This document shows, one piece after another, positions 20,425 to 58,802 of a stretch of DNA of 64,000 bases. The number at the start of each line of letters is the position of its first letter. Positions within the stretch are counted from its first letter, which is position 1. A model generated the notes under the pieces. It saw only the letters and a program-made list of their open reading frames with translations, was not told the DNA's origin and searched no databases. Position numbers and translations under genes: made by a program. The stretch is from Candidatus Nomurabacteria bacterium RIFOXYD2_FULL_35_12 (GTDB taxonomy: Bacteria; Patescibacteriota; Minisyncoccia; Phycocordibacterales; UBA9973), in NCBI GenBank assembly GCA_001786365.1, contig MFWK01000022.1, forward strand, positions 15,087 to 79,086, read 5' to 3'.

Positions 20425-20468
20425 TTTGCATTGTAAAACTATTTCGTGTAATACTGTGTGAAATGAAT

Positions 20469-20584
20469 CCCGTTAGAAGTCGCGGTCGCGAATTTTATTT
20501 GGGATAATTGTATAAATTGTTTATTAAATTAATTAGCGGGGATAGGTTTTTCAAAAGAAAGACCGCGACCTGCTTCTAAGCGGG
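20469..20584. repeat. Family A MITE-like element, copy A1 (TIRs CCCGTTAGAAG...CTTCTAAGCGGG)
   Basis: cccgttagaagtcgcggtc at 20469.. and gaccgcgacctgcttctaagcggg at ..20584 are imperfect inverted repeats about 75 nt apart. The right end directly abuts the topA ATG (20585). Confidence 0.75.
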
Positions 20585-25465: not shown

Positions 25466-25549
25466 GCCGGGGTGGCGAAATTGGTAACCGCAATTGACTC
25501 AAAATCAATCGGGGGCAACCCCTTGGGAGTTCGAGTCTCCCCCCCGGCA
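25466..25549 (+). tRNA. tRNA-Leu (anticodon CAA), long variable arm
   Basis: GCCGGGGTGGCGAAATTGGTAACCGCAATTGACTCAAAATCAATCGGGGGCAACCCCTTGGGAGTTCGAGTCTCCCCCCCGGCA. 7-bp acceptor stem, anticodon loop CTCAAAA, extra arm GGGGGCAACCCC, T-loop TTCGAGT. Confidence 0.8.
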
Positions 25550-25608
25550 CTAAGTTGGTATTTATAACAAAAAAAATAAGAAGGACTTATCCACAGCCTA
25601 TTTGCATT

Positions 25609-25624
25609 ATCTCATATATGAGAT
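25609..25624. promoter_or_regulatory. Perfect 16-bp palindrome ATCTCATATATGAGAT just upstream of the HTH-MurA gene (candidate operator)
   Basis: The sequence is its own reverse complement. It ends about 12 nt upstream of the ATG of an ORF whose N-terminus is an XRE-type HTH. Confidence 0.4.
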
Positions 25625-25636
25625 ATACTATTGAAT

Positions 25637-27154
25637 ATGAAAAAAGAGACTGAACAACAAAAGATAGGCTACTTTATAAAAGAGCTCCGCGAGCATCGCG
25701 GAATGACTCAAGAAGAATTTGCTAAAGCACTCAATACTTCTCAAAGTTCTGTCCCCCGAATGGAAAAAGGAGAACAAAATTTCACCACTGAATTACTTTT
25801 TAAAATAAGCAACGTCCTAAACCATCAAATAGTTTCTATAAATGATTCTATTGATTTCCAAGTAAATGGAGGAAAGAAATTAAGTGGAACCATAAAAACA
25901 AACTTTTCAAAAAATGGTTCAGTGGGACTTTTGTGTGCATCTTTATTAAATAGTGGAATAACGACTCTACATGGCATCGCACGAATTGAAGAAGTTTATC
26001 GAGTAATTGAAATTTTAGAAAGTATTGGAGTTACCATCAAATGGCTCGATCATAATACTTTAACTATAACGCCTCCAAAAAAATTCACTCTAGAAAATAT
26101 AAATATAGAATCAGCAATAAAGACACGTTCAGTTGTTATGCTAATAGGACCGCTCATTCACAAATTATCATCTTTCTCTATTCCCCATCCACATGGCTGT
26201 AATCTAGGTAGACGCACTATCGCTGCTCATATTTATGCTTTAGAAAATTTCGGAGTAAAGATAAAAACAACTAGTGTAAATTATGAAATTAAAGCCAAAA
26301 AATTAAAACCAACAGAGATAGTAATGTACGAATCCGGAGACACAGCCTGCGAAAATGTTTTGACGGCTTCTGCCCTTATCCCTGGTATCACGAAAATAAA
26401 TTTTGCTAGTGCAAATTATATGGTGCAGGAAGTATGCTTTTTCCTTGAAGCTTTGGGTGTAAAGATTGATGGCATCGGTACTGCATCACTAACCATTCAT
26501 GGAATTTCTGAAATAAATAAAAATATTGAATATTGGAATAGTGAAGACCCAATAGAATCAATGATGTTTATTTCTGCCGGAATTATTACTGACTCAAAAA
26601 TCACAATAACACGCTCCCCGATTGATTTCCTATCTCTTGAATTAGAAAAATTAAAGAGAATGAATTTGAAATATAAACTTTCAAAAGTCTATTATTCATA
26701 CAACGGTAGAACAAGACTTATAGATATAGAAATCTTTCCAAGTAAATTAAAAGCGTTAAATGACAAACTTCACTCAAATCCTTATCCTGGAATAAATATA
26801 GACAATTTACCCTTTTTTGTACCGATTGCCATAAAAGCCAAAGGTCAAACAATGATTCACGACTGGGTTTATGAAAATAGAGCAATATATTTAACTGAAT
26901 TGAACCGTCTAGGAGCAGATATAACTCTAGCTGACCCGCATCGCCTCTATATCAATGGTGGAACATCACTAAAGGCAGCACAAATTGTTTGTCCTCCAGC
27001 CCTACGCCCATCTATGGTTATACTCATCTCAATGCTTGGAGCTAGTGGAACCTCAATTCTACGAAATGTTTATATGATAAATCGCGGATATGAAGAGATA
27101 GCTGGACGTTTAAATTCTATTGGTGCTGACATAAAAATAATCAAGGGGAATTAA
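25637..27154 (+). CDS. murA: UDP-N-acetylglucosamine 1-carboxyvinyltransferase fused to an N-terminal XRE-family HTH domain
   Basis: HTH: IGYFIKELREHRGMTQEEFAKALNTSQSSVPRMEKG. MurA core from ~residue 73: FQVNGGKKLSGTIKTNFSKNGSVGLLCASLLNSGITTLHGIARIEEV... Both lie in one uninterrupted frame. The ORF track starts at TTG 25631; the ATG is at 25637. Confidence 0.8.
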   Translation: MKKETEQQKIGYFIKELREHRGMTQEEFAKALNTSQSSVPRMEKGEQNFTTELLFKISNVLNHQIVSINDSIDFQVNGGKKLSGTIKTNFSKNGSVGLLCASLLNSGITTLHGIARIEEVYRVIEILESIGVTIKWLDHNTLTITPPKKFTLENINIESAIKTRSVVMLIGPLIHKLSSFSIPHPHGCNLGRRTIAAHIYALENFGVKIKTTSVNYEIKAKKLKPTEIVMYESGDTACENVLTASALIPGITKINFASANYMVQEVCFFLEALGVKIDGIGTASLTIHGISEINKNIEYWNSEDPIESMMFISAGIITDSKITITRSPIDFLSLELEKLKRMNLKYKLSKVYYSYNGRTRLIDIEIFPSKLKALNDKLHSNPYPGINIDNLPFFVPIAIKAKGQTMIHDWVYENRAIYLTELNRLGADITLADPHRLYINGGTSLKAAQIVCPPALRPSMVILISMLGASGTSILRNVYMINRGYEEIAGRLNSIGADIKIIKGN

Positions 27155-28003
27155 ATGCAAAAAGAAAAAATTATCATCATTCTAGGCCAAACTGCCACTG
27201 GTAAAAGTAATTTGGCTGTAAAAATCGCCAAAAAAATAAACGGAGAAATTATCTCCGCAGACTCAAGACAAGTCTATGTAGGGCTTGATATAGGCACCGG
27301 CAAAATTACACAAAAAGAAATGAAAGGAATTCCCCATCATTTAATTGATATCGTAAAACCAAAAAATAAATTTACAGTCGCAGAGTATAAAAAATTAGCA
27401 GAAGAAAAAATAAAAGAAATAATTTCTCGTGATAAAACACCAATTATCTGCGGAGGCACAGGATTCTATATTGATGCTATCACCAAAGGTGTCATTTTTC
27501 CGAAAGTTCCACCAAATTCTAAATTAAGAAAAATTTTAGAGAAAAAATCTACAGAACAATTATTAAAAATATTAAAAAAATTAGATCCCACAAGAGCAAA
27601 AAATATAGATTCAAAAAATAAAGTCAGACTAATTAGGGCAATTGAAATAGCTAAAGCTCTCGGTAAAGTCCCGAAAATTACAGCGGTGAAACCGCTGTAT
27701 AAATTTATAAAGATTGGTTTATATCTGCCACAAGATAAATTAAAGAAGAAAGTAGAAAAAAGAGTTAAAAAAATGTTTACCGATGGTTTACTGAATGAAA
27801 TTAAAAAGCTTAAAAAAGCCAGTATATCCCAAAAAAGGCTTTCTGAGCTAGGTTTTGAATATAACAATCCTACTTATGAAAAAGTAGTCAGAGGGACTCT
27901 ACAATATGCCAAGCACCAGATGCAATGGTTTAAACGCGATAAAGAAATAAAATGGTTTGATGCGTCAAAGAAAATATTTGACATAATTATGATGAAGTTG
28001 TAA
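27155..28003 (+). CDS. miaA: tRNA dimethylallyltransferase
   Basis: 282 aa. P-loop IIIILGQTATGKSNLAVKIAKK, SADSRQVYVGLDIGTGK. Confidence 0.85.
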   Translation: MQKEKIIIILGQTATGKSNLAVKIAKKINGEIISADSRQVYVGLDIGTGKITQKEMKGIPHHLIDIVKPKNKFTVAEYKKLAEEKIKEIISRDKTPIICGGTGFYIDAITKGVIFPKVPPNSKLRKILEKKSTEQLLKILKKLDPTRAKNIDSKNKVRLIRAIEIAKALGKVPKITAVKPLYKFIKIGLYLPQDKLKKKVEKRVKKMFTDGLLNEIKKLKKASISQKRLSELGFEYNNPTYEKVVRGTLQYAKHQMQWFKRDKEIKWFDASKKIFDIIMMKL

Positions 28004-28093
28004 GGTTTCCAAAGAACCAAACGCGTGAAAACGGATACGTCCGACACGCATGCACATAACAACGCCGCCTTAAAAACGGCACAATAGAGGAGA

Positions 28094-28795
28094 TTGAAAA
28101 TGGACACGTCCATCAATCATCAAGATAGTTGCAAAGAAGGATTGGGAGAACAACAACGAAACAAGAGAACCATCATAACGACTGTCCTTGTAGAGGACTT
28201 TCTTTTTGACGGAGGACAAGGAGTCGATGCGGATCGTCTGTCACCAGAAACGAAAATTAAGGTGATCAAACGTGTTCTCGCAGAATCGAAGCCTTATCTC
28301 AAATACATGTTCGCTCACACACTTCGTGACGACCCCACATTGCTCAAAGCAGTTGGCGGGGATTGGAACGAGAGAAGCATGTGTTCTAATGTGTGGAACT
28401 CAGGAGTAGACTTGTGCTGGGAGACGAGAATTGGCTATCTGTTTGGATCCAAACGACAATCCCTGTATTCACCGGAGATGGCTCAAAAGACACCAGATCG
28501 AGATGAGTGGGTTAAGTCGCTGTTCTTCATCTCAGACAAGGGCTGTCTCGTTGAGGTAAAGCTCGTGTCAAAGATATCAAAAGGATTCCTCATTGAATAT
28601 CCATGCTTGATGGAGGCTAAAATGCTCACTGATGAGAGGCTCACCGAGCTTTTTGTTAGTCACGAGTTCTTTTTCCAGGGTTTACTGGAATGCATCGAAG
28701 CCCACTACACCGCTCGTATAAGTGACCAGGAAGCTCGAGCGAATAACATGCGCCGAAACAGAACGAACATCAGGAGGATTCTTTCTCTGGTTTAA
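28094..28795 (+). CDS. Hypothetical protein encoded in a GC-rich island
   Basis: 233 aa ORF with a GGAG RBS 8 nt upstream and a rho-independent terminator downstream. Local GC is near 48% against a ~30% background. No recognisable domain. Confidence 0.4.
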   Translation: MKMDTSINHQDSCKEGLGEQQRNKRTIITTVLVEDFLFDGGQGVDADRLSPETKIKVIKRVLAESKPYLKYMFAHTLRDDPTLLKAVGGDWNERSMCSNVWNSGVDLCWETRIGYLFGSKRQSLYSPEMAQKTPDRDEWVKSLFFISDKGCLVEVKLVSKISKGFLIEYPCLMEAKMLTDERLTELFVSHEFFFQGLLECIEAHYTARISDQEARANNMRRNRTNIRRILSLV

Positions 28796-28819
28796 TCAGT
28801 AAAAAACCGCTCAACAACT

Positions 28820-28848
28820 TAGACCGTTGGAGGGCGGTCTTTGTTTTT
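28820..28848 (+). terminator. Rho-independent terminator (AGACCGTTGGAGGGCGGTCT + TTGTTTTTT)
   Basis: 6-bp GC stem, 8-nt loop, U-tract. Directly 3' of the 28094..28795 gene and next to the convergent aldehyde dehydrogenase stop. Confidence 0.6.
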
Positions 28849-30212
28849 TACCCAAAATAAACGTTTTTTATATTTACGAATTCCTTGATTCCATAAGTTC
28901 CGAGTTCACGGCCGTAGCCAGACTTTTTAATGCCTCCAAATGGCGCTCGCGGATCAGACTTAACCATATCATTCACACACACATTCCCCGCTTCAATTTG
29001 CGGAATAATTCGTTTTGCTTTTTTCATATCGGAAGTAAAAATAGACGCACCTAAGCCATATCTAGTGTCATTAGCTATTTGTATCGCCTCTTTTTCATTT
29101 TTAAAAGAAATAATCGGCATAACTGGACCAAAAACTTCCTCATCATAAACAGGCATACCCTTTTTCACATTCGTCATGACAACAGGCGAATAGAAATACC
29201 CTTTTTTATTTTTTTGAACGCCTTTATAAACAATTTTTGCTCCGAGGGATACTGATTTTTCTACTTGTTTTTCTACATCCAGTAAAATTTGTTCTGTTGC
29301 CAAAGGCCCTATGTCTATCTTTGAGTCACTAGGATCACCAATTGATAATTTTGAAAGTTCTTTTACTACATTTTTTATAAAAATATCTTTTATACTCTCC
29401 TCGACAATAAAACGTTTAGCAGAAATACAACTTTGCCCAACATTTCCTTGCAACCTTGCTGTGACAGCGATTTTCGCTGCTTCATCGATGTCCGCATCAG
29501 CAAAAACAATAAATGGATCACTACCACCGAGTTCAAGCACCACTTTTTTTATTTCCGCCCCAGCGACACTCGCAACCTCGCTTCCCGCTTTCTCACTGCC
29601 CGTCAAAGTAACTGCAGAAATTCTATTATCACGAATTAAATCAGCAACTCGAGACGACGAAAGAAATAAATTTTGGAATACGCCCTCGGGGAAACCACAA
29701 GCTCTAAATGATTCTTCTATTGCTTCCGCGCACTGTGGCACATTTGAAGCATGTTTAAGAAGCCCGACATTTCCTGCCATTAGTGCTGGTACAGCAAAAC
29801 GATAAACTTGCCAAAAAGGAAAATTCCAAGGCATTATTGCCAAAACTATTCCGAGCGGATCAAATTCCACATATTGTTCTTTCTTGCCCGTATCTAATTT
29901 TTCATTCTTTAAGATAATTTCCGCATTATCAGCATAATAATCACACAAAAGCCCGCATTTCTTTATGCCAAATGGACCAGACTTCATGGTCTTGCCCATT
30001 TCAAGCATTTGTAATTTTGAAAACTCTTCCGCATGGTTATTTAAATATTCTCCCAGCTTGTGCATTAAGGTAGCGCGCTCTTTAAAAGAAGTTCTCTTCC
30101 AAGACTCAAAAGCTTTCTTTGCTAGAGAAAGTTTCTTTTCTAATTCTTTTTCAGAAACTTCTTTAAAACTTTTTAAAACTTCTTCTGTTGCTGGATTTTT
30201 TGATTGAATCAT
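28848..30212 (-). CDS. NAD(P)-dependent aldehyde dehydrogenase (succinate-semialdehyde dehydrogenase-like)
   Basis: 454 aa. ELGGSDP, catalytic Cys context GQSCISAKRFIV, GxxxxG NAD site. Confidence 0.8.
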   Translation of the reverse strand: MIQSKNPATEEVLKSFKEVSEKELEKKLSLAKKAFESWKRTSFKERATLMHKLGEYLNNHAEEFSKLQMLEMGKTMKSGPFGIKKCGLLCDYYADNAEIILKNEKLDTGKKEQYVEFDPLGIVLAIMPWNFPFWQVYRFAVPALMAGNVGLLKHASNVPQCAEAIEESFRACGFPEGVFQNLFLSSSRVADLIRDNRISAVTLTGSEKAGSEVASVAGAEIKKVVLELGGSDPFIVFADADIDEAAKIAVTARLQGNVGQSCISAKRFIVEESIKDIFIKNVVKELSKLSIGDPSDSKIDIGPLATEQILLDVEKQVEKSVSLGAKIVYKGVQKNKKGYFYSPVVMTNVKKGMPVYDEEVFGPVMPIISFKNEKEAIQIANDTRYGLGASIFTSDMKKAKRIIPQIEAGNVCVNDMVKSDPRAPFGGIKKSGYGRELGTYGIKEFVNIKNVYFG

Positions 30213-50940: not shown

Positions 50941-51261
50941 TTAGTATTCTCGGCGTCCGCCTCCTCCCCCATAACCTCCTCGGTCATTGCCTCCACTTCG
51001 TGGTGGGCGAGCTTCCATTGGGCGAGCTTCGTTGACAGTAAGTTTGCGTCCTTCGAATTCTTGATCGTTGAACATCGAGATAGCTTTTGCAGCTTCATCT
51101 TGAGATGACATTTCTACGAATCCAAAACCTTTTGAACGACCAGACATCTTGTCCATGATAATAACAGCGGAAACAACGTTTCCAGCCTGTGCGAAGAGCT
51201 CTTTTAGGGCACCTTCGACTGTGCTGTAAGGGAGTCCCCCTACATATAGCTTTGTAGCCAT
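50941..51261 (-). CDS. Glycine-rich RNA-binding protein (single RRM)
   Basis: 106 aa. RNP2 KLYVGGL, RNP1 KGFGFVEM, C-terminal GGYGGGGGRR tail. Confidence 0.8.
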   Translation of the reverse strand: MATKLYVGGLPYSTVEGALKELFAQAGNVVSAVIIMDKMSGRSKGFGFVEMSSQDEAAKAISMFNDQEFEGRKLTVNEARPMEARPPRSGGNDRGGYGGGGGRREY

Positions 51262-58454: not shown

Positions 58455-58802
58455 TCATGACTGAACATACAGAGCTCCTTTCTCAAGGAGACCAGGAAGC
58501 TCTTTTTTACAGCAGTAGCATCTGAAAGATGAGCCAGCTCGAATAGTGTTGAGATTTCCACATTCCGAACAAGCTTCGCACTCCTCCAGGAAAAGGATTG
58601 GGTATGTTTGCCAAGCGTTCAAGAACACCCCAACAAGTGCACGGTCTATGATGAAATAAAGTGACGCTTCAGGTATGAAGCCTTCCCTGTCCACTTCCTT
58701 CATCATTCGATCCCAAGCTACCTTGATACTTTCCTGCGCTAATCCCCACTCTCGCAAAAAGTATAACAGACTCATTGCGTGATATGACATAGGATACGAC
58801 AT
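58455..58802 (-). CDS. Hypothetical protein with C-terminal CxxC...CxxC motif, encoded in a GC-rich island
   Basis: 115 aa. ...EECEACSECGNLNTIRAGSSFRCYCCKKE... Local GC ~45-50%, own terminator. ORF 58379..58561 overlaps and is probably spurious. Confidence 0.35.
   Translation of the reverse strand: MSYPMSYHAMSLLYFLREWGLAQESIKVAWDRMMKEVDREGFIPEASLYFIIDRALVGVFLNAWQTYPILFLEECEACSECGNLNTIRAGSSFRCYCCKKELPGLLEKGALYVQS

Follow-up and report, generated by a model that had tools for sequence, protein, structure and literature searches.

A GC-rich orphan gene between miaA and an aldehyde dehydrogenase gene in a Nomurabacteria genome: a probable ancestral acquisition behind a conserved leader

How did a short stretch of DNA with a foreign-looking composition come to lie between two convergent housekeeping genes, and how long has it been there? 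The question is raised by a GC-rich island found in a 64-kb stretch of the genome of a Candidatus Nomurabacteria bacterium (Patescibacteria, or candidate phyla radiation, CPR) from the Rifle aquifer; this stretch is called the window here, and all coordinates are window positions unless another locus is named. The island separates miaA from an aldehyde dehydrogenase gene and carries a gene for a protein without recognisable relatives, hereafter the orphan gene. The original prediction took it for a recent horizontal acquisition. Our comparison with related genomes points to a different age: we consider it likely that the gene was acquired once, long ago, by an ancestor of the present species from a GC-richer donor, that its composition has since been ameliorated only in part, and that a conserved leader limits its translation. 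The features on which the argument turns are the following.

28004..28847, + strand: the whole GC-rich insert, 844 bp, from the miaA stop codon (28001-28003) to the aldehyde dehydrogenase stop codon (28848-28850).
28089..28092, + strand: Shine-Dalgarno sequence GGAG, 7 nt before the ATG, read from the sequence and conserved in the sister species L089.
28100..28795, + strand: orphan protein-coding gene, 231 amino acids (aa) plus stop, recognised as an open reading frame (ORF), by its orthologue P0002 and as a deposited 'hypothetical protein'.
28802..28847, both strands: bidirectional intrinsic terminator, serving the orphan gene (+) and the aldehyde dehydrogenase gene (-).

The island has a GC content of 45.8%, against 35.0% for the window. 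The strong excess first described holds, but the figures attached to it, about 48% in a genome of about 30%, needed correction. Compared with all 844-nt windows the excess corresponds to z = 3.0, and equally GC-rich windows make up 0.11% of the total. By tetranucleotide distance the island is the most deviant of 632 windows (z = 5.7), so the composition is far from uniform. The GC-rich codons that had been noted as unlike those of the neighbours are equally clear in numbers: GC content at third codon positions (GC3) is 0.50 in the orphan ORF, whereas 54 of the 55 other genes span 0.16-0.36, and its codon adaptation index (CAI) against the remaining genes, 0.516, is the lowest among 56. Third positions are nearly uniform in the orphan (A.26, C.25, G.25, T.24) and strongly skewed in the host (A.38, C.13, G.13, T.37), while the first and second positions (GC1 = 0.50, GC2 = 0.37) are ordinary for the genome. 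The deviation of the island sits in codon choice, not in amino acids.

The ORF at 28094..28795 exists as predicted, with a GGAG of its own, but its start has to be moved. Because GGAG lies only 1 nt from the TTG at 28094 and 7 nt from the ATG at 28100, the true start is likely the ATG, which gives a product of 231 aa rather than 233 and a spacer of 7 nt. The ATG is also the start chosen by gene callers in independent assemblies, and the orthologue begins at the same codon. Deposited records (KKP89576.1, OGJ04758.1 and others) call the product a 'hypothetical protein'. A stop-free stretch of this length arose in 0.06% of Markov simulations of the island (p = 0.0006). Between the window sequence and its orthologue the reading frame is kept, every alignment gap is a multiple of 3 nt, and the proportion of nonsynonymous differences (pN 0.39) is well below that of synonymous ones (pS 0.67), with dN/dS at about 0.32. 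We take the ORF to be genuinely protein-coding and under purifying selection. The product, of 26.7 kDa and pI 6.9 with no transmembrane segment by hydropathy, is a soluble, approximately 27-kDa protein of mixed alpha/beta type.

A terminator-like hairpin inside the coding sequence, 28184-28198 (+), about 85 nt past the start, consists of GTCCTTGTAGAGGAC followed by TTTCTTTTT; it is not clearly conserved in L089, and contig LBQY01000013 of assembly GCA_000991075.1 begins within it, at 28194.

The position of the island is as first described: Pfam identifies the flanks as miaA (IPPT, 1.6e-60) and aldehyde dehydrogenase (3.7e-140), which converge, and within 6 kb on each side lie topA, relA/spoT, parB, a murA-like gene, miaA, aldehyde dehydrogenase, a thiamine pyrophosphate (TPP) enzyme gene, L33, alr and ddl. 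We examined synteny in 80 GTDB species representatives that carry miaA, 13 of which have it convergent with aldehyde dehydrogenase. Five of these species (L013, L020, L033, L048 and L060) present an empty site, with the two stop codons about 0-35 nt apart, and the remaining species with the convergent pair hold various unrelated inserts there. The miaA/aldehyde dehydrogenase junction is thus a variable site, occupied in 9 of 14 species by inserts of which at least six are mutually unrelated. Neither tblastn nor a profile search of six-frame translations, run without filtering, brought up a relative of the orphan in any of the 80 representatives, and an orthologue at the same locus was found in one sister species, L089, and not throughout the relatives. 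Because five related species have the empty site and the 80 representatives lack a homologue, we interpret the island as an insertion of foreign composition between convergent housekeeping genes.

Several more specific descriptions of the site were tried. An insertion sequence or miniature inverted-repeat transposable element (MITE) was rejected, there being no terminal repeats and no other copy in the window or at any locus examined. An integron cassette fares no better. An attC site measures about 55-141 nt and is bounded by R'' (RYYYAAC) and R' (GTTRRRY), whereas just 10 nt separate the GCTCAAC and GTTGGAG of the 3' hairpin, and the final position lacks the pyrimidine; no integrase occurs within 6 kb, at most two orphans stand in tandem (in L089), and the hairpin is that of an ordinary terminator. 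A clade-wide hotspot for GC-rich inserts downstream of miaA is only weakly supported, since in a crude test 5 of 81 loci exceed z = 2 just past miaA, approximately what chance gives when the maximum of three windows is taken.

Other Nomurabacteria carry different, mutually unrelated GC-rich orphan ORFs beside miaA or between the TPP-enzyme gene and alr (L089 9285-9809 and 14164-14613, L009 4562-4864 and 8418-9038, L012 6878-7345, L018 7427-7915, each in the coordinates of its own locus). The L012 orphan has 155 aa and a GC3 of 0.71, and that of L018 162 aa and 0.62. A 174-aa orphan of L089 and a 100-aa ORF of L009 are related to each other and form a clade-restricted family; kinship of our orphan with these two was tested by hhalign and rejected (probability 0.1). 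The window itself holds a second GC3-rich orphan at 58455-58802 (-), of 115 aa, with 45.1% GC, GC3 0.457 and the second-lowest CAI in the window (0.539). It has a Cys-rich C-terminus (CEACSEC...CYCC) and a GC-rich hairpin downstream, finds no match in Pfam, PHROGs, NCBIfam, PADLOC or viral contigs, and shows no sequence relationship to the 231-aa protein. Among the small genes of the window the one richest in GC, 50941-51261 (-; 48.6%), is not foreign: it encodes a protein of the RNA recognition motif (RRM) type (NF058537, E = 2e-28), and its GC comes from codon positions 1 and 2 (GC1 0.63), that is, from amino-acid composition.

The age of the insertion can be approached through L089. A tree of the MurA-like protein, MiaA and aldehyde dehydrogenase places the window species and L089 as sisters (89% aa identity), with L009 as the next branch. 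The order in L089 is miaA, the 174-aa orphan, the 217-aa orthologue P0002 and the convergent aldehyde dehydrogenase gene. The right-hand junction, from the terminator to the aldehyde dehydrogenase stop codon, is identical in the two species, and they also have the leader and the terminator in common. The proteins between these shared ends have diverged widely: the orphan keeps 40% aa identity against 78-92% for the flanking genes, and the two copies of its coding DNA are 55% identical. Synonymous divergence (dS) reaches 1.69 in the orphan, near saturation, against 0.73-1.55 in the flanks, and nonsynonymous divergence (dN) 0.54 against 0.04-0.15. The orphan protein thus appears to change about 4-12 times faster than its neighbours while still under purifying selection (dN/dS about 0.3).

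A further comparison concerns what four-fold degenerate sites remember of their strong or weak (S/W) base state. The flanks (826 sites) retain a memory of 0.243 and the orphan (42 sites) one of 0.24, and this equality indicates that both copies have diverged over the same time as the surrounding genomes. An orthologue at the same locus, the same junction and equal S/W memory together argue for one ancestral insertion followed by vertical descent: the gene would have entered a single time, in the ancestor shared by the window species and L089 after the lineage of L009 had branched off, and inherited vertically since. The original reading of the island as a recent horizontal acquisition is therefore upheld in one half, for the insertion, the foreign composition and the orphan status all favour horizontal origin, and contradicted in the other, since a sister orthologue, 40% aa identity and an S/W memory equal to that of the flanks speak against recency.

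How, then, could the third positions have stayed GC-rich for so long? The L089 copy is also GC-rich, with 46.3% GC and GC3 0.47 in a locus of 35.9% GC. Under a two-state neutral model calibrated on the 826 flanking four-fold sites, with a decay factor of 0.49 per lineage, the present GC content at four-fold sites (GC4) of 0.48 requires about 0.66-0.72 at the split. By the known relation between GC3 and genome GC, such a GC4 is feasible for a donor of about 55-60% GC. Most simply, then, the model suggests that incomplete amelioration is sufficient for the high GC3, and we take it as the default; the GC-rich third positions would be the half-decayed legacy of a GC-richer donor.

If the protein has changed fast, the ends of the unit have hardly changed at all, and this applies above all to the region in front of the start codon.

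27978..28006, + strand: promoter-like site, TTGACA (27978-27983), 17 nt, then TAAGGT (28001-28006), lying over the last codons and stop of miaA; read from the sequence.
28013..28099, + strand: conserved 5' leader of about 87 nt, its 5' end estimated from the promoter-like site only.
28023..28049, + strand: hairpin P1, GCGUG-AAAA-CGGA[UACG]UCCG-A-CACGC, -10.4 kcal/mol, with the first GGAYACGTYC motif (28033-28042).
28064..28080, + strand: hairpin P2, GCCG-N9-CGGC, from the predicted fold.
28092..28118, + strand: hairpin P3, GAUUGA-AAA-UGGA[CACG]UCCA-UCAAUC, -9.6 kcal/mol in the window and -8.2 kcal/mol in L089.

The promoter-like site, of which L089 keeps the -35 box and a G-TA-GGTTT block (there intergenic), would give the orphan gene a promoter of its own. 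There is no terminator after miaA, so that read-through into the orphan from the upstream operon would also be possible. Over the aligned positions of 28007-28099 the leader is 86% identical between the two species, rising to about 92% by our own count in the core, 28020-28099, with a single substitution across 28020-28057. Other spacers of the same two genomes are 42-55% identical with large insertions and deletions, and four-fold sites 53%. The leader folds better than expected in both (z = -2.9 in the window, -3.1 in L089). P1 differs by one substitution, which falls in the internal loop; the stem of P2 is longer in L089 (GCCGUUU/AAACGGC, -8.7 kcal/mol) through CC to UU changes; and the only change in the stem of P3 is C to U, with pairing kept as G-U. 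P3 encloses the start codon (28100-28102) and codons 2-6 and holds the second GGAYACGTYC (28102-28111). This motif has exactly two matches in the 64 kb, where 0.07 are expected: one is the inner stem-loop of P1, the other sits on the start codon. Conservation extends into the gene, where 17 of the first 18 coding nucleotides are identical, synonymous positions included, against a gene-wide pS of 0.67. The leader has no relative in Rfam.

Because the leader is conserved, P3 buries the AUG and the motif pair is restricted to the leader, we think that it is probably a translational control element working like an operator hairpin. Such a leader would limit the initiation of translation, and might be the operator for an RNA-binding (or DNA-binding) factor, possibly the product of the orphan gene itself.

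The other end of the unit is no less constant. The stem of the terminator, 28821-28840, is followed by TTTGTTTTTT; it had been described as a canonical rho-independent terminator, which it is, and the fold indicates that it acts on the minus strand as well (z = -2.7 and -3.1 on the two strands). Over 44 nt it is 98% identical to that of L089. Since similar terminators lie by the aldehyde dehydrogenase gene in L009 and L062, and after the 174-aa orphan of L089, this one probably predates the insertion or was duplicated by it.

A number of points weigh against an old, single and partly ameliorated acquisition with a translation-limiting leader. The -10 box of the promoter-like site is weak (3 of 6 positions match) and was not called by a consensus scan. 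No terminal direct or inverted repeats and no target-site duplication occur at the island, nor an integrase within 6 kb on either side or an adjoining tRNA gene, so that no mobility signature accounts for the arrival of the insert. Neither a donor nor a homologue on the donor side was found among 5.8 billion proteins, viral contigs, phages and plasmids. The S/W memory of the orphan rests on just 42 sites, and two diverged sequences alone offer neither an outgroup copy to polarise substitutions nor a basis for testing covariation in the leader. More than one order of gains and losses is possible for the 174-aa orphan of L089 and L009 relative to the orphan gene. Structure models are of low confidence (predicted local distance difference test, pLDDT, 39 and 45) and support no biochemical function. 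Last come three compositional points, which are also arguments for a different history of the third positions: GC3 is unlike the host although GC1 and GC2 already resemble it, whereas simple amelioration would proceed in the opposite order, so that some force may be keeping GC3 up; a high GC3 (0.48) is likewise seen in the 174-aa orphan of L089, although its counterpart in L009 has diverged to 29-36% aa identity; and unrelated GC-rich orphans match the codon usage of this gene (r 0.41-0.45) and not that of the host (r 0.18).

This leads us to ask whether the high GC3 is a relic at all, or whether some force actively keeps it up, here and in similar orphans. Rare codons might be selected because they slow the translation of a dosage-sensitive protein, a recombination-prone site might undergo GC-biased gene conversion, or alleles might be replaced again and again from an external, GC-neutral pool through the conserved flanks. 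Besides the three points just given, active maintenance would fit the GC3 of 0.47-0.50 in both orthologues despite nearly saturated synonymous sites (pS 0.67), the almost exact uniformity of third positions, and the AUG-occluding leader, which also suggests low expression. On the other hand, the neutral model arrives at today's GC4 of 0.48 from a feasible 0.66-0.72 at the split, the coding sequences show no excess of RNA structure, the flanking genes lack the GC elevation that a local hotspot of gene conversion might produce, and the direction of change is not measurable from two sequences. We regard active maintenance as unlikely, though still in contention. The fold comparison comes from both orthologues, neither of which exceeds its shuffles (z = -0.39 and -0.46); the miaA control segment (27155-27850, +), unlike the orphan, folds far better than its shuffles (z = -3.9, from 20 shuffles only).

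Two more novel readings may be considered. The leader, 28013-28118, would be a new cis-regulatory element, in which the GGA[YACG]UCC stem-loop pair, with one member on the start codon, would gate translation via the orphan protein or another factor. And selection or a GC-biased process would keep the synonymous sites of this and similar fast-evolving Nomurabacteria orphans at about 50% GC, which would then not be a leftover of transfer. We find such readings rather unlikely.

Relatives of the orphan protein were sought widely. Single-sequence and two-sequence-profile searches of 5.8 billion proteins combined k-mer matching with HMMER, and scans also covered JGI metagenome contigs, GTDB genomes, IMG/VR, INPHARED phages and PLSDB plasmids. 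A phmmer search of 1.84 billion cluster representatives returned three proteins: the orphan itself, P0002 (217 aa, 40% identity, E = 2e-36) and an 83-aa fragment. The two-sequence profile added nothing in 5.8 billion proteins, JGI metagenome contigs, IMG/VR, phages, plasmids or PDB sequences, the last searched at E up to 10, and only the orphan, its orthologue in L089 and a single chimeric fragment came out of all the searches together. Scans of the orphan and its orthologue with Pfam, PHROGs, NCBIfam and PADLOC gave no matches, and the anti-phage defence families of PADLOC none at E up to 1. The impression gained by eye, that no homology is recognisable, is therefore borne out everywhere beyond the clade of the gene itself. 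In the literature on GC-rich orphans or islands in Nomurabacteria and CPR we found nothing relevant. On present evidence the orphan protein constitutes a new family, known from two lineages, of a familiar kind, the lineage-specific acquired orphan. Our best guess, and a weak one, is an accessory role in conflict or in adaptation to a niche, with expression of the gene kept low and under control.

One more definite function can be imagined, and it would be compatible with an old acquisition: a very divergent nuclease of the PD-(D/E)xK type, for example a solitary modification-dependent restriction enzyme or a toxin. The pattern of that family is 'D ... hhhExK'. In the orphan protein an invariant D135-E136 at the start of a predicted beta-strand is followed by a D-x-G turn and a strand C-L-V-E152-V-K154, together a predicted beta-hairpin. 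The resemblance is at the level of the motif only, and fast evolution, orphan status and deviant codon usage, which are typical of restriction enzymes, were counted in favour as well. However, the lysine is replaced by arginine in the orthologue (E-I-R), neither profile nor fold similarity to members of the superfamily was found, profile matches are lacking in Pfam, NCBIfam, PADLOC and PDB even at an E of 10, and no methyltransferase adjoins the gene. A nuclease of this type seems to us improbable.

Recency could still be rescued if the window species and L089 had each received diverged alleles recently and independently. The strong deviation in composition and codon usage, the orphan status of the gene and the variability of the site among species would all agree with such a history. 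It would have to explain, however, why the right-hand junction is identical and leader and terminator are in common, why the gene is confined to two sister species, and why its synonymous S/W memory equals that of the flanks; moreover, all the assemblies compared show the population of the window species to be clonal at this locus, and a variant lacking the gene was not seen among them. We consider it very improbable and retain the single ancestral insertion.

There remains the question of whether the island could be a product of assembly. The exact protein is indexed in 52 collection blocks for MiaA and in 58 for aldehyde dehydrogenase, and 24 contigs were read for each, drawn from JGI, ENA, NCBI and Logan and built by several assemblers. 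The same 231-aa gene stands between both flanks at every place shown, and the island is without sequence variation. In each assembly examined the island is joined to both flanks; it is therefore not an artefact of assembly. One draft assembly, GCA_000991075.1, breaks within the ORF at 28194. Contig L092 (JGI 3300025154, 1008 nt) begins with 126 nt that are 100% identical to the orphan gene (window 28620-28745) and then switches abruptly to unrelated DNA of 56% GC with a weak metallo-hydrolase-like ORF; it was rejected as a donor or second context, as it is probably a chimera of the de Bruijn graph, 126 being k-1 for k = 127. A structured RNA in place of a gene was likewise rejected, because there is no Rfam match and the coding sequences fold no better than shuffles: only tRNAs reach the gathering score in the window, and nothing relevant appears at E up to 10 in 27800-29000. 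That there is no gene here, and that the island is a structured non-coding RNA, a pseudogene, an assembly chimera or a contaminant, is to our mind next to negligible. In its favour, GC-rich islands in AT-rich genomes often mark RNA genes, one assembly breaks inside the ORF, and a 1-kb contig joins part of it to unrelated DNA. Against it, Rfam gives no match, whether at the gathering score or with E raised to 10, the fold of the coding sequence is unremarkable (z -0.4), the frame is conserved with indels in threes and a dN/dS of 0.32, the locus is contiguous with both flanks across several assemblers, and the overlap of the odd contig has the length of a graph artefact.

Three neighbouring features deserve a record of their own. 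Upstream of miaA, 25631-27154 (+) encodes an XRE-type helix-turn-helix domain fused to a MurA/EPSP-synthase-like enzyme (HTH_3 4.9e-14, EPSP_synthase 3.7e-39), and just upstream of it a 43-nt block, 25587-25629, with the palindrome TCTCATATATGAGA, is conserved in the sister species while the rest of the spacer is not; the block may be an autoregulatory operator. Between parB and the murA-like gene, tRNA-Leu(CAA) lies on opposite strands in the two sisters (window 25466-25550, +; L089 6651-6737, -), a difference that corresponds to a local inversion of a single tRNA gene. Finally, the dprA-topA spacer of the window contains, at about 20466-20584, a stretch of about 110 nt without a counterpart in L089. 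Its inverted arms, at 20484-20507 and 20547-20570 and in an outer pair, CCCGTTAGAAG.../...CTTCTAAGCGGG, are GC-rich, and it could be a small element, mobile or structured.

In large part the finding is an ordinary one, a lineage-restricted hypothetical gene at a variable intergenic site whose sequence had already been deposited. Its modest value lies first in showing cleanly that composition, even when strongly anomalous, need not testify to recent transfer: the anomaly has outlived a speciation over which three quarters of the S/W memory was lost from the synonymous sites nearby. The fast protein set against a nearly frozen leader and terminator points to a new translational control element, and the family, without detectable relatives or fold assignment, belongs to a group whose accessory biology is mostly unknown. 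Should GC3 prove to be maintained, a 'foreign-looking' composition in reduced genomes would mark a functional class of genes and not recent arrival.

Set beside known systems, the island shares features with several. Like the lineage-specific orphans of CPR bacteria, the gene has no homologues beyond a narrow clade and a protein that evolves faster than its neighbours, with dN/dS at about 0.3. Like the ameliorating genes of the Lawrence and Ochman model, it has a composition between those of presumed donor and host, but its GC3 is far from the host while GC1 and GC2 are host-like; and whereas acquired and orphan genes are usually AT-richer than their host, this one is GC-richer. What sets it apart from CPR orphans and acquired genes alike is that its regulatory ends are far better conserved than its protein. 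With regard to these ends, the leader shows no sequence or Rfam relationship to any described element, and the likeness to translational operators, such as the MS2 coat protein-replicase operator, the autoregulation of ribosomal proteins and RNA thermometers, is a functional analogy only; it consists in a hairpin of about -8 to -10 kcal/mol that holds the start codon, in conserved synonymous positions and in a second copy of the stem-loop upstream. The closest parallel to the unit as a whole may be the phage moron, an autonomous unit of promoter, gene and terminator that has been added between two older genes and often deviates in base composition. The island differs from morons in lying between chromosomal housekeeping genes and not in a prophage, with no phage genes within 6 kb, no PHROG match and no relative in IMG/VR or the phage collection. 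As in morons, however, a single gene with a Shine-Dalgarno sequence, a terminator and a putative promoter-like site of its own is wedged between genes that abut in relatives, is of clearly different composition, and would be dispensable, because most relatives lack it. By analogy, the island is best described as a moron-like accessory unit that would encode a fast-evolving cytoplasmic protein under tight translational control.

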